From NCBI GenBank assembly GCA_041489155.1, contig JBGPQP010000006.1, positions 1,338 to 65,337 on the forward strand: a stretch of DNA of 64,000 nucleotides, in the 5' to 3' direction. Below are positions 4,603-48,772 of this stretch, piece after piece. The position numbers and the translations under genes are program-made. This DNA comes from Candidatus Aenigmatarchaeota archaeon (GTDB lineage Archaea > Aenigmatarchaeota > Aenigmatarchaeia > QMZP01 > QMZT01). The notes beneath the pieces were generated by a model. It was given only the letters and a program-made list of their open reading frames with translations. It did no database searches and was not told the origin of the DNA. Within the stretch, counting starts at the first letter, position 1, and every line of letters begins with the position of its first letter.

Positions 4603-4648
4603 CCGCTTGTCTCAAACTTAAAAATAACACCACTGAATATAATATCAC

Positions 4649-4796
4649 GCTGGGATGGCGGAATGGTAACGCGCTAGCCTGGAATAAGCCTTTTGACCAA
4701 AAGGCTTAAGCGAAAACCAGCAGCTCACGCTTGCATTTGGTTTGCCAGACAGCTAGTCTCCTTACGGGGTCCTGGGTTCGAATCCCAGTCCCAGCG
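4649..4796 (+). tRNA. tRNA-Ser (GGA) with a 66-nt canonical 37/38 intron (4685-4750)
   Basis: Acceptor GCUGGGA/UCCCAGC, D arm with GG, anticodon stem CUAGC/GCUAG, loop CUGGAA|A, long variable arm CUCC-UUAC-GGGG, T arm CUGGG-UUCGAAU-CCCAG, discriminator G. The intron forms a strict BHB: CUGG:CCAG central helix, bulges AA|U and AC|A, distal helix AAGCC:GGUUU. No encoded CCA. Confidence 0.9.
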
Positions 4797-4830
4797 TTTC
4801 AAGACCAGAAGCATAAAATTACGGATAATT

Positions 4831-5520
4831 ATGAAAACAATTAACGCAGAAAAAATCCCGCTGCCAGAACCTTTCCATTCCCTGACAGGCGGCGTAGAGA
4901 GAGGAACGATTACGAATTTCTACGGCCCGCCGGGCGTGGGAAAAACGAATATCTGCATCCTCGCCGCACTGGAATGCATAAAGAAGGGCGGCAAGGTCAT
5001 TTACATCGACAGCGAGGGCGGGCTGTCGCCGGAACGCATAATGCAGATAAGCGGCGACCAGAGCGTCCTAGAGCGCATAATCCTGATCGAGCCCAAAACC
5101 TTTGAGGAGCAGGGCGTGGCTATAAAGAACCTGGAGGGCAGCGAGTTCGACATGCTGGTCCTCGACTCCGCCGTCGCTTTGTACAGGCTGAAATGCGCCG
5201 ATCCCGGCAGCGAGACGCTCGAGGCGAACAAGGATCTGTCCGTGCAGCTTTCCGTCCTCTCCAACATCGCCAGGAAAAGGAACATTCCCGTCATCATCAC
5301 AGCGCACGTCTTCAAGAACTGGGACACGGGCGAGAACCAGATGATAGGCGGCGACGCCATCAGATACTGGTCCAAATCAATCATCTTCGTCGAGCACACT
5401 GGCAGGATGAGCGAGCGCAAGGCAACAATCGTAAAACACCGCTCGATTCCGGAGGGCAAATTCGTTAAATTCGAGCTCGTTCAGAACGGCATACGCCCGT
5501 CGGGCTTCAGGATATTCTGA
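4831..5520 (+). CDS. radB: RadB (RadA/Rad51 paralog, single RecA-like domain)
   Basis: 229 aa from ATG 4831; the track start at 4693 is a TTG inside the tRNA. Walker A GPPGVGKT, Walker B MLVLDS, RadB-like size and tail. Confidence 0.85.
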   Translation: MKTINAEKIPLPEPFHSLTGGVERGTITNFYGPPGVGKTNICILAALECIKKGGKVIYIDSEGGLSPERIMQISGDQSVLERIILIEPKTFEEQGVAIKNLEGSEFDMLVLDSAVALYRLKCADPGSETLEANKDLSVQLSVLSNIARKRNIPVIITAHVFKNWDTGENQMIGGDAIRYWSKSIIFVEHTGRMSERKATIVKHRSIPEGKFVKFELVQNGIRPSGFRIF

Positions 5521-8890: not shown

Positions 8891-9049
8891 TGCGGGAGCA
8901 GGGATTCGAACCCTGGAACACATGCCTCGCGCTTCGCTAAGCGAATGCTTCGCAAAGGCGCCCTAAGTGAGCAGGTCTTGAGCATCGACATCATCTTGAA
9001 TCAGAGTTCAAGACCATTCTACCGCCTTTGACCACTTGGCTACCCCCGC
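8891..9049 (-). tRNA. Class II tRNA, probably tRNA-Leu (CAA), 159 nt with two insertions (about 8983-9017 in the anticodon arm, about 8922-8962 in the variable arm)
   Basis: Acceptor GCGGGGG/CUCCCGC, discriminator A, Leu-type D arm GCC-AAGUGGUCAAA-GGC, intact T arm CAGGG-UUCGAAU-CCCUG, loop CUCAAGA followed by CCUGC, variable arm U-CAC-UUAG...GUG-UUC. Exact splice sites were not resolved; no strict BHB was found by hand. Confidence 0.6.
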
Positions 9050-9075
9050 ATTATAGAAATTGCAGAAACAGCTTA

Positions 9076-9600
9076 TTAACCTATCGCCCTCAGCTGCGCC
9101 CTGAGCTTCTCCAGCTGGCCGTACACGTTTTTCATGTGGTCCTCGACCTCGCCCCTTTCTTCCGGTTCGAGGTCCTCTTCCTCGTAATCCTCCGGCCTTT
9201 CCATTGCCTGGGGCTTCATGAAGAACGCATCGAGGTTCGATGTTAGCTCGTTGAGTTCGTCGAGGGTTTTTTGCGCGATTTCTATGCCATTTGCCACTTC
9301 CCTCTGCATGTCCCTCAGAACGTCAAGCGCATCCCTGAGGTTGAGGATGTAAGAGCGCAGATCGCGTATATTTTTAACGATGGCCCTGTACTTGTCGACT
9401 TTTATGAAAAGCGGCGGAGATTGCGTCGAAGGCGTTGGTCTTGGCGCGGGCGCTCTGGGAGCAGGAGCCCTCTTTATCTCTGGCAGTTGTACAGAGGGAG
9501 AGTAGTTTTCCTCTGCCGGTTGCTGTTCAGAATCAGCTTCTTTCTCTTCCTCTGGCTGCAGCTCCTTTATCTCCTTTGCCTTGCTTTTAAAGAGCTTCAT
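9076..9600 (-). CDS. Hypothetical protein: acidic/Pro-rich disordered N-half plus coiled-coil C-half
   Basis: Start moved to ATG 9600 (MKLFKSKAK); the track ORF ran into the tRNA-Gly gene. PAPRAPAPRP linker, then heptad-like LFIKVDKYRAIVKNIRDLRSYILNLRDALDVL... Confidence 0.6.
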   Translation of the reverse strand: MKLFKSKAKEIKELQPEEEKEADSEQQPAEENYSPSVQLPEIKRAPAPRAPAPRPTPSTQSPPLFIKVDKYRAIVKNIRDLRSYILNLRDALDVLRDMQREVANGIEIAQKTLDELNELTSNLDAFFMKPQAMERPEDYEEEDLEPEERGEVEDHMKNVYGQLEKLRAQLRAIG

Positions 9601-21447: not shown

Positions 21448-21503
21448 ACAGCGAGCGGCTAGACTATGCTTTTAAAAACAGGTGACATCATACATTATAG
21501 CAC

Positions 21504-21599
21504 AGCGGGGTGGAGCAGCCTGGAGTGCTCGCTGGGCCCATAACCCAGAGGTCGATGGTTCAAAACCTTAATGAAAAGGTGAAAATCCATCCCCCGCTA
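21504..21599 (+). tRNA. Initiator tRNA-Met (CAU) with a 21-nt T-loop (59/60) intron at 21565-21585
   Basis: A1:U72, anticodon stem CUGGG/CCCAG (three G:C), loop CCCAUAA (C33). T stem GAUGG/CCAUC. The insertion forms a strict BHB: UUCA:UGAA, bulges AA|A and AA|U, distal helix CCUU:AAGG. The spliced T-loop is UUCAAAU. Confidence 0.9.
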
Positions 21600-21601
21600 T
21601 T

Positions 21602-21943
21602 ATGAAGGTTGCCTTGCTTCTTCTTTTGATTACGGCATCGCTTATTATTTCTGGCTGCGTGCAGCAGCAGGGCACCGGGCAGACGGCGAGCGCTGAAGAA
21701 CAGGCAAAGCAGAAATGCATCGAAACATGCATGATGATAAGCTGGGATCTGACAAACAGAAGCCCGTGCCTGTCTGACAACAATACTGCATGGAACATAA
21801 GCGACTGGGTCTGCGATGTTGCCCATTCGCCGAGGCAGCCTGTCGATAATCTGCCTGAAAACCAGTGCGCTGCCTTCAGGGAAGGCAAGGCCCGCCATTT
21901 CGTTGAAGTGGGCCCGGACTGCAAGCTCATAAGGGCAGTCTGA
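21602..21943 (+). CDS. Small Cys-rich lipoprotein-like secreted protein
   Basis: MKVALLLLLITASLIISG|C lipobox-like signal; 113 aa with 8 Cys. The ATG lies 2 nt after the tRNA discriminator base. Confidence 0.7.
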   Translation: MKVALLLLLITASLIISGCVQQQGTGQTASAEEQAKQKCIETCMMISWDLTNRSPCLSDNNTAWNISDWVCDVAHSPRQPVDNLPENQCAAFREGKARHFVEVGPDCKLIRAV

Positions 21944-27288: not shown

Positions 27289-27452
27289 AGCCCCGGGCGA
27301 GGATTGAACTCGCGACCTTTCGCTTTTTGTCGGCAGAATATTCGTTTTCTGCCTAAGCTCTTTCCTAAAGAGCTTATACCAAGCGAACGCTCTGTAGGGA
27401 TTGAAGCAGGTTTCACCTGCTTCGCTCGAAATTACCACTGAGCTACCGAGGC
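27289..27452 (-). tRNA. tRNA-Thr (GGU) with two insertions: D-region (about 27393-27432, 40 nt) and canonical 37/38 (27325-27376, 52 nt)
   Basis: Acceptor GCCUCGG/CCGGGGC (one G.U), D stem GCUC/GAGC, anticodon arm UUCGC-UUGGUA|..|A-GCGAA, variable AGGUC, T arm GCGAG-UUCAAUC-CUCGC, discriminator U. The spliced length is 72 nt. The D-region boundary is ambiguous because GAGCG is duplicated. Confidence 0.8.
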
Positions 27453-27494
27453 GGATAATATACAATAAATTATCTTCTTTTTATTTATGAAAGC

Positions 27495-36999: not shown

Positions 37000-37019
37000 A
37001 TATATCGCTTTTTTCTGCT

Positions 37020-37042
37020 TAGGCTCTTTCCTAAAGAGCTTA
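37020..37042. repeat. Palindromic hairpin element, copy B (taggctcttt-cct-aaagagctta)
   Basis: 10-bp arms with one mismatch. Together with its flanks (37011-37060) it is near-identical to the anticodon-arm/intron junction of tRNA-Thr (27325-27385). Confidence 0.8.
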
Positions 37043-37084
37043 TTGGAAGCAAATGCAGCGGAGCGGAGTGAAGCTCCTTTCTGA

Positions 37085-37111
37085 TTAAGCTCTTTCCTGA
37101 AAAGAGCTTAA
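37085..37111. repeat. Palindromic hairpin element, copy C (ttaagctcttt-cctga-aaagagcttaa)
   Basis: 11-bp perfect arms, the same arm sequence as copy B and as the tRNA-Thr intron hairpin (27354-27376). Confidence 0.8.
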
Positions 37112-37185
37112 GCTTATTATATATTTAAATTAGTTTAACATAAATAATTGTCATCTCAACGTATGTCAAACTATATAAATTAGAA

Positions 37186-48560: not shown

Positions 48561-48632
48561 GCTCCTTCCATTTAACTCTTTTTGGTTTTTGCTAAACTTT
48601 TAATATATTCACGATAATTATTCTTACCTATA

Positions 48633-48772
48633 GGGGCCGTGGTGTAGCTAAGCCCTTTCACGGCAGCTTTCGCTTGCACGAAAGCGCTTGCGGAAAACGT
48701 GAATGGCTCTGCAATGGTCTAGCATTCAAGCTTCGGGAGCTTGCGACCTGAGTTCGAATCTCAGCGGCCCCA
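48633..48772 (+). tRNA. tRNA-Pro (CGG) with a 65-nt D-loop intron (48650-48714)
   Basis: Acceptor GGGGCCG/CGGCCCC, D stem GUGU/GCAU, anticodon arm CAAGC-UUCGGGA-GCUUG, T arm CUGAG-UUCGAAU-CUCAG, discriminator A. BHB-like fold: GUAG:CUGC central helix, bulges CU|A and AA|U, distal helix AGCC:GGCU. The spliced D-loop is AGCUUGGUCUA. Confidence 0.85.

Follow-up and report, generated by a model that had tools for sequence, protein, structure and literature searches.

tRNA punctuation in mitochondria relies on RNase P and RNase Z, whose excision of the tRNAs frees mRNAs that are mostly leaderless. Transcripts joining a tRNA to another RNA also occur in archaea. Thermococcus kodakarensis carries a tRNA-Lys in the 5′ UTR of TK0306 and a tRNA-Arg/snoRNA sR44 co-transcript for which cleavage by RNase Z has been proposed, and RNase Z cuts the tRNA-C/D sRNA precursors of N. 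equitans (PMC4247193). We analyzed a 64-kb stretch of archaeal DNA (hereafter the window) in which the gene for an initiator tRNA-Met (iMet; 21504-21599, + strand) is separated by two nucleotides from the start codon of a putative lipoprotein gene (21602..21943, + strand). As in the archaeal co-transcripts, the tRNA lies upstream of another functional RNA and RNase Z is the proposed releasing enzyme. However, those cases have longer spacers or a small RNA as partner, whereas in the window the cut itself would make a translatable 5′ end. As in mitochondrial punctuation, the tRNA abuts a start codon with neither promoter nor terminator in between, and the predicted leader is 0-2 nt. In contrast to mitochondria, this is a cellular archaeal chromosome with a single tRNA-mRNA pair and no genome-wide polycistron, and the processing is a prediction from the sequence.

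The tRNA gene is interrupted by an intron between positions 59 and 60, a documented non-canonical intron site of archaea (PMC4090602) that is also occupied in the DPANN archaeon ARMAN-2 (PMC3239211). The introns of pre-tRNA-Cys and pre-tRNA-Pro in ARMAN-2 'Ca. Micrarchaeum' and those of the Thermoproteales share with the present one the T-loop site, the hBHBh′ geometry and the short length, and they too are found in small-genome archaea, whose endonucleases tolerate non-canonical sites (PMC3239211, PMC4090602). Unlike these known cases, the window intron sits in an initiator tRNA and varies in presence between sister species, and relatives carry up to five introns in one iMet gene.

An archaeal initiator tRNA gene and its T-loop intron

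The region 21504-21599 matches the Rfam tRNA family RF00005 with 44.2 bits against a gathering score of 29, and the cloverleaf is its minimum-free-energy fold. Read from the sequence, the acceptor stem (AGCGGGG/CCCCGCU) begins with A1:U72 (A21504/U21598), the D-stem (GAGC/GCUC) contains A11:U24, and the anticodon stem (CUGGG/CCCAG) has three consecutive G:C pairs at 29-31:39-41. The anticodon loop CCCAUAA places the CAU anticodon at 21539-21541 and a C at position 33 (21538); the variable loop is AGGUC and the T-stem GAUGG/CCAUC. The discriminator A73 is nucleotide 21599, CCA is not encoded, and UUAUG follows directly. Together with the Rfam score, the A1:U72 and A11:U24 pairs, the three G:C pairs and the anticodon bear out the initiator identity proposed in the first-pass annotation: this is an archaeal (DPANN-type) initiator tRNA-Met gene of the single-copy type. 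Its mature 75-mer is identical in the relatives L245 and L247. The tRNA promoter has a TATA-like box, TTTTAAAAA (21470..21478, + strand), whose centre lies about 30 nt before tRNA position 1; with the promoter matrix described below it scores 7.2, a value reached by a random 40-mer with p = 0.04. L245 shares the 56-nt spacer with a single base difference, and L248 also keeps the stretch CATCATACATTATAGCAC.

Rfam, the minimum-free-energy fold and the sequence place the 5′ exon (positions 1-59) at 21504..21564; the 3′ exon (U60, the 3′ strands of T-stem and acceptor stem, and A73, without CCA) lies at 21586..21599, both on the + strand. The T-stem strands are 28 nt apart, which corresponds to a 7-nt loop plus a 21-nt insert at 21565..21585 (A-CCUU-AAUGAA-AAGG-UGAA-AA, + strand), whose boundaries are slidable within an A-run. 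The insert forms an hBHBh′ motif in which the outer helix, the central helix UUCA:UGAA and the inner helix CCUU:AAGG are each paired at 4/4 positions, the bulges AAA and AAU are 3 nt each, and the loop of the inner helix is 6 nt. The ViennaRNA fold lacks the weak A/U central helix and shows the same nucleotides as a symmetric 6×6 internal loop. Removal of 21565-21585 yields the T-loop UUCAAAU. L245 and L246 contain base for base the same tRNA with an uninterrupted T-loop, GGTTCAAATCC, followed by a gene for a protein 89% identical to that of the window. The 21 nt are thus exactly an intron between positions 59 and 60, and the intron-less tRNA of this sister lineage proves that it can be excised precisely. 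In eight related 21-nt introns, 99% of the cells were paired and 7 pairs had changed on both sides; none of 500 shuffles matched this pairing, and slid controls were only 44-64% paired. The reading of the insert as a 21-nt intron with a perfect BHB is therefore sound, with all three helices complete, covariation among relatives and an intron-less sister. No intron-minus variant was present in the Logan contigs of four DNA runs, which reproduced the window contig.

In geometry the 59/60 site matches the canonical 37/38 site, each being placed after nucleotide six of a 7-nt loop that is closed by a 5-bp stem. In metagenomes, at least 66 distinct archaeal initiator genes carry an insert of 17-100 nt at 59/60. 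Among the matches listed, 68 rows were parsed at this site, two of them being 1-nt artefacts; all four central pairs were present in 46 of the 68 rows and at least three in 67. T-loop introns are accordingly widespread in initiator genes of uncultured archaea, so the rarity implied earlier was overstated, and the window intron is not strictly minimal as had been supposed, since a 17-nt insert exists at 59/60 in another archaeal initiator gene.

We compared the orthologous iMet genes, which lie in a conserved neighbourhood of genes for PCNA, nitroreductase, the tRNA, the lipoprotein, a kinase and SAH hydrolase. Introns are absent from the gene of L245 and are found at 59/60 in the window, L048 and L211, in the D-loop and at 59/60 in L232, in the D-loop and at 32/33 and 37/38 in L247, at 32/33, 37/38 and 59/60 in L253, and in the D-loop and at 32/33, 37/38, 43/44 and 59/60 in L248. 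After splicing, the sequences show either no difference or a single compensated pair change. L253 has a 59/60 intron nearly identical to that of the window, with 2 differences. This near-identity and the varied intron content indicate that the 59/60 intron is evidently old in the clade of the window and that it was lost precisely in L245 and L247. The comparison of related initiator tRNAs suggested in the first-pass annotation was thus informative on both features: the 59/60 intron is variable, with none in L245 and L247, and C33 is common to all members of the clade. An iMet gene with an intron is ordinary for DPANN, and C33 is typical of this lineage. Farther relatives carry 3-5 introns per initiator tRNA gene.

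Position 33 is a near-universal U in tRNAs, and in the window iMet it is a C. We scanned one genome per species with the pattern GGGCCCATAACCC..AG.......GTTC and found C33 initiator-type tRNAs in at least 120 prokaryotic species, with matches, sorted by sequence, of clear archaeal type in at least 28 cases and of bacterial type in at least 63. The archaeal sources include Thermoplasmata, Methanomicrobiales, Methanofastidiosia, Altarchaeum, Cenarchaeum and Woese-, Pace-, Aenigm- and Nanohalo-archaeota, and the bacterial ones Weissella/Leuconostoc, Planctomycetota, Patescibacteria and Erysipelotrichaceae. Since C33 is shared by at least 28 other archaeal-type initiators, the missing U33 does not disqualify the gene as an initiator. 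Among the matches listed, the genes with a T-loop intron have U33 in 59 cases and C33 in 9, which indicates that C33 and the T-loop intron are independent of each other.

C33 has been ascribed to the initiators of multicellular eukaryotes and U33 to those of prokaryotes, and C33 is reported to prevent the E. coli and yeast enzymes from forming t6A37 (PMC8887486, PMC9023262). The 28-nt identity to the vertebrate initiator that the first-pass annotation noted is real: the human sequence given in PMC8216282 contains GCTGGGCCCATAACCCAGAGGTCGATGG. The human cytoplasmic initiator tRNA-Met shares with the window iMet A1:U72, GGG:CCC, C33 and 28 consecutive nucleotides (positions 26-53). Taken with the assignment of C33 to multicellular eukaryotes (PMC8887486, PMC9023262), this might be read as a specific evolutionary or functional link to eukaryotic initiation. 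Such a link is extremely unlikely, as C33 recurs across the archaeal- and bacterial-type initiators counted above, the 28 identical nucleotides are the most constrained part of all initiators, and the T-loop is the archaeal UUCAAAU, which lacks the A54/A60 of the human AUCGAAA. The D-arm also differs from the human one, the genomic context is archaeal and an intron is present. C33 is thus a scattered, under-reported lineage trait of archaea and bacteria that indicates no eukaryotic link and is not unique to this gene, as against the rarity implied earlier. This census corrects the published picture, in which C33 initiators seem restricted to multicellular eukaryotes.

The two-nucleotide junction and the gene downstream

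As further cases of known categories, the tRNA, its intron and C33 are not exceptional; the unusual part of the locus is the junction. UU (21600..21601, + strand) is the whole spacer between discriminator and start codon. The succession of A 21599, UU and ATG 21602 was confirmed as first read, and the junction is reproduced on independent assemblies. The same UU spacer occurs in L245, also before the lipoprotein gene, and in L048, L211 and L216 before a gene for an AlaX-type protein. In a set of 126 distinct archaeal-type initiator genes, an ATG ORF of at least 60 codons that starts no more than 5 nt from the discriminator was confined to these two clades; the sole further case, a 70-codon TTG ORF in L068, is probably spurious.

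The ORF encodes 113 aa, a putative secreted or lipid-anchored protein whose family is restricted to DPANN, with 99 homologues at E ≤ 1e-3. Named homologues come from MAGs of Aenigmarchaeota, Diapherotrites, Micrarchaeota and Nanoarchaeota, which places the window in DPANN. The predicted signal peptide, MKVALLLLLITASLI, ends in the lipobox ISGC with Cys19 (codon 21656-21658); the sequence MKVALLLLLITASLIISGC follows the lipobox pattern ([LVI][ASTVI][GAS]C after n- and h-region), and the SGC motif is kept in most of 25 aligned homologues. In this alignment, M-K/R is followed by a hydrophobic core and an (I/V/L)SGC lipobox, and the members also share six invariant cysteines and the conserved core DWVCDVAHSPR...ENQC...HFVEV. 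All family-invariant residues are kept in the window protein, and its N-terminus aligns with those of the relatives, which supports ATG 21602 as the right start. Between the window and L245, dN/dS is 0.38 at dS 0.21, the highest value among eight neighbouring genes (0.02-0.30 for the neighbours). The AlphaFold model has a pLDDT of 86, with >90 in the mature domain. The protein matched no Pfam or NCBIfam family, and a Foldseek search against the PDB gave no match with E < 1. The N-terminal MK, hydrophobic core, ISGC and invariant Cys are common to bacterial-type and haloarchaeal lipobox lipoproteins, whereas the mature domain of the putative window lipoprotein is a DPANN-restricted six-Cys fold without a Pfam, NCBIfam or PDB relative. 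The ORF, annotated at first as a credible lipoprotein gene, is a real gene under purifying selection; the 99 homologues, the MK with a hydrophobic stretch and (I/V/L)SGC, and the six invariant cysteines agree with that annotation.

In the window, first genes are preceded by a TTTAAA-type box with its centre about 26-30 nt from the ATG, a spacing that implies leaderless mRNAs, and internal genes by GGTGAT at about 6 nt from the ATG. An A/T profile upstream of all window ORFs was uninformative until it was limited to first genes. Neither signal precedes the lipoprotein gene, and the 2-nt gap holds no terminator, promoter or SD. We built a promoter PWM from 28 first-gene promoters of the window, which themselves score 5.8-12.6, and scanned positions -50 to -10. 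The best site before the lipoprotein ATG is CTTAATGAAA, located in the intron, with a score of 3.3 (p = 0.16 for a random 40-mer).

Two mechanisms had been offered for the expression of the lipoprotein gene: co-transcription with release by RNase Z, which the comparisons favour, and a promoter formed by the A/T-rich intron and T-arm, which fared poorly. According to the latter, the lipoprotein mRNA would be a separate primary leaderless transcript starting at about 21602. The weak A/T run TTAATGAAAA is indeed centred about 30 nt before the ATG, a spacing resembling that of window promoters centred at -26 to -33, and the intron loop AAUGAA of the window is richer in A/T than the UUCG of its relatives. 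However, the score of 3.3 is below those of all 28 reference promoters, and the junction is identical in L245, which has neither intron nor A/T run (-2.4), and is kept with a GC-rich intron in L048 (-2.9) and L211 (-1.8). Moreover, the lipoprotein gene of L253, where the intron is nearly that of the window, nonetheless lies behind a terminator, a cassette and an SD. An internal promoter is thus very unlikely, being a weak explanation for the window and an untenable one for the relatives.

The first-pass annotation also listed six tRNAs lying 2-53 nt upstream of a co-oriented CDS. Five of them were confirmed, and the next start codon is co-oriented in 5/5 cases: Ser(GGA) at 4649-4796(+), with an intron at 37/38 and 34 nt to the next start; a Leu-like type II tRNA at 9049-8891(-), with an intron and 39 nt; the iMet at 21504-21599(+), with its 59/60 intron and 2 nt; Thr(GGU) at 27452-27289(-), with introns in the D-loop and at 37/38 and 40 nt; and Pro(CGG) at 48633-48772(+), with an intron in the D-arm and 44 nt. 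The sixth was not found: 37000-37125(-) has two hairpins resembling the tRNA-Thr intron but contains no Rfam tRNA, and ARAGORN called none there after brute-force removal of one hairpin. By default ARAGORN finds no tRNA in the window, because every tRNA there has an intron, and with -i only two; its 'Asp' call at 8891-9049 is doubtful, as the D-arm looks type II and Leu-like. The TATA-like runs ascribed to the other gaps are present in three of the four, centred at -26 to -33, but the run in the Ser gap is centred at -16. Five co-oriented pairs out of five are unremarkable in a compact genome, and the iMet junction is the outlier.

Origin and stability of the junction

The interval between tRNA and lipoprotein gene varies among the relatives. 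In L253 it consists of a GCTA-TTTTTTT (T7) terminator, a 60-nt hairpin, a LAGLIDADG gene and then GGGTGAAGCAT-ATG, in L248 of a T5 terminator and a LAGLIDADG gene, and in L247 of a 28-nt T-rich spacer. L249, L250, L251, L254 and L255 have no tRNA at the locus, and a TATA box and GGGAG precede the lipoprotein ATG. As the relatives keep these separate signals, the lineage of the window and L245 evidently deleted a spacer present in its ancestors, and terminator, promoter and SD went with it. This spacer would have held a T-run terminator and the TATA box and SD of the lipoprotein gene, with a LAGLIDADG cassette in some relatives.

In the second clade, the succession A73-UU-AUG precedes the gene of an AlaX-type editing protein with tRNA_SAD and AlaRS C-terminal domains; no AlaX gene lies in the window. 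L048 and L211 both keep the junction although dS is saturated, their AlaX proteins being 72% identical. The sister of L211, L232 (93% identity), differs in carrying an SD-like insertion of 18 nt in place of the 2-nt junction. The architecture is evolutionarily stable. This bears on a further explanation, that the junction is a recent, slightly deleterious deletion and the lipoprotein gene is poorly expressed or becoming a pseudogene. Such decay would fit the dN/dS of the lipoprotein, the highest among the eight neighbouring genes, and the spacer loss seen from the relatives. However, the ORF is intact, the invariant residues, lipobox and frame are kept in two species at dS ~0.2, and the same architecture has persisted over saturated dS before AlaX. 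Incipient decay is on these grounds highly improbable.

Predicted transcription and processing

The gap without terminator, promoter or SD, the leaderless first genes and the occurrence of the junction in two clades together favour co-transcription. We consider it fairly probable that tRNA and mRNA form one transcript from which RNase Z frees an essentially leaderless lipoprotein mRNA. The transcript would start within a few nucleotides of tRNA position 1, from the tRNA's own TATA box, and without a terminator after the tRNA, transcription would run on into the lipoprotein ORF. The splicing endonuclease would cut in both 3-nt bulges, and ligation would give UUCAAAU. tRNase Z would cut after A73, a cleavage that is expected to be obligatory because CCA is not encoded. 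The tRNA would thus be freed for CCA addition and a 5′-P-UUAUG mRNA left, which would be translated in leaderless mode as proposed for the first genes of the organism.

RNase P and RNase Z read the elbow of T-loop and D-loop. As the insert disrupts this elbow, intron removal would probably come ahead of end processing in the window species, a speculative order of events. Genes for EndA, RtcB, RNase Z and RNase P were not located within the 64-kb window. The sequencing runs in which the window sequence was found are DNA runs only; a search for RNA runs, made for both the window and L048, yielded none. A T-rich stretch in the signal-peptide codons, CTTCTTCTTTTGA (21618..21630, + strand), is a feature of the sequence only; it could be a weak, partial terminator for tRNA-only transcripts and might end part of the transcripts. 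Read-through from the co-oriented nitroreductase operon upstream could also contribute to transcription of the locus.

Alternatively, after co-transcription, ribosomes might start on the ORF by SD-independent internal initiation, either on the uncut precursor or on longer read-through RNAs of the upstream operon, in which case RNase Z would only destroy or compete with the message. There is no terminator among the nitroreductase gene, the tRNA and the ORF, and SD-less internal initiation is reportedly known in haloarchaea. However, internal genes regularly have GGTGAT, whereas the lipoprotein and AlaX genes have none. L232, which has a spacer, has gained the SD-like GGGGTTGG, and this gain suggests that an unprocessed leader needs an SD. 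In addition, a start codon 2 nt from the stable acceptor stem would be poorly accessible. Translation of the precursor is accordingly unlikely, though less so than an intron promoter or gene decay.

Release by tRNA processing may not be confined to the window. As a tentative generalization, tRNA 3′-end processing may have been co-opted to make mRNA 5′ ends in at least two DPANN lineages, independently for the lipoprotein and AlaX, with release in the window needing prior splicing. If this is true, it would be an archaeal counterpart of mitochondrial tRNA punctuation, located downstream of the initiator tRNA in both lineages. The comparisons show steps of streamlining in which terminator, promoter and SD were lost and the resulting architecture was stable. 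The junction would thus offer a natural test case of whether streamlined archaea make leaderless mRNAs by tRNA processing, of the smallest 5′ leader and the 5′ chemistry that archaeal leaderless initiation tolerates, and of whether tRNA splicing and mRNA release can be coupled.

tRNA promoters and flanking elements in the window

All five tRNA genes of the window are preceded by a TATA-like box whose center falls 27-31 nt before position 1 of the mature tRNA: 4617-4627 for tRNA-Ser, 9071-9080(-) for the Leu-like tRNA, 21470-21478 for tRNA-iMet, 27477-27489(-) for tRNA-Thr and 48597-48609 for tRNA-Pro. Such spacing would place the transcription start on the tRNA 5′ end or only a few nucleotides from it, and the five tRNAs would then be near-leaderless, like those described in Nanoarchaeum equitans.

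A RadB/Rad51-like gene (4831-5520) lies 34 nt downstream of tRNA-Ser(GGA), and the gap (4797-4830) contains no T-run terminator, SD sequence or correctly spaced TATA box. The gene pair is the window's second candidate tRNA-mRNA co-transcript.

Downstream of tRNA-Thr by 40 nt is a highly basic 30-codon ORF with a GTG start (27248-27156(-), ..RKRKRKKIKKHKLKKRRKKMRHRKK), which is shorter than ordinary ORF-length cut-offs and resembles ribosomal protein L41e. The hairpin of the tRNA-Thr 37/38 intron (27354-27376) recurs nearly identically in two copies at 37000-37125(-), as TAAGCTCTTT..AGGAAAGAGC(T/C)TA. The ~43 nt between the two copies contain a Trp-like anticodon arm (UUGC-UUCCAAA-GCGA), and neither Rfam nor ARAGORN detected a tRNA in this region. 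Possible readings of this element are a mobile hairpin derived from an intron, the remnant of a tRNA, or a small RNA flanked by BHB motifs.

The initiator tRNA-lipoprotein locus in relatives

Orthologous initiator tRNA genes are found at the related loci L248 (2115-2341), L253 (564-728) and L247 (start 2799). The L248 gene has five apparent introns, with strict BHB motifs at 32/33 and 59/60 and relaxed ones in the D-loop and at 37/38 and 43/44; they leave a 5-nt micro-exon, CCAUA, and the spliced product equals the L253 mature tRNA. In the initiator genes of L049, L059 and L240 (Woese- and Aenigmarchaeota), ..CCGCAAT(A/G)G.. replaces the expected AGCGGGG, despite the 3′ acceptor strand being CCCCGCTA. 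Another intron may lie near positions 1-7, or the gene may be split there.

The slot between the nitroreductase/tRNA-iMet side and the lipoprotein gene is filled in relatives by a free-standing LAGLIDADG_3 homing-endonuclease gene in either orientation (L247:2249-2800, L248:2370-2975, L253:830-1495, L254:617-1378(-), L251:188-844(-) and L249:2135-2878(-)). A conserved hairpin of ~60 nt (GGGCGGCTTATATCATTTT ... AAAATGATAATAAGTCGCCC) always lies upstream of this gene, and together they look like a mobile cassette, which is absent from the window and the related locus L245. The lipoprotein itself (21602-21943) represents a family restricted to DPANN, whose proteins measure ~110 aa and share six invariant Cys residues in the alignment of 25 members (A1); its fold is predicted confidently (pLDDT 86), and no relative was found in Pfam or the PDB.

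C33 in bacterial initiator tRNAs

Among the matches listed in the scan for C33 initiator-type tRNAs (L005-L124), C33 occurs in bacterial initiators across whole clades, namely Weissella/Leuconostoc/Fructobacillus, Phycisphaerae/Pirellulales, several Patescibacteria and Erysipelotrichaceae. This distribution runs against the statement that U33 is the prokaryotic initiator state, and poses the question of the route to t6A37 in such organisms.
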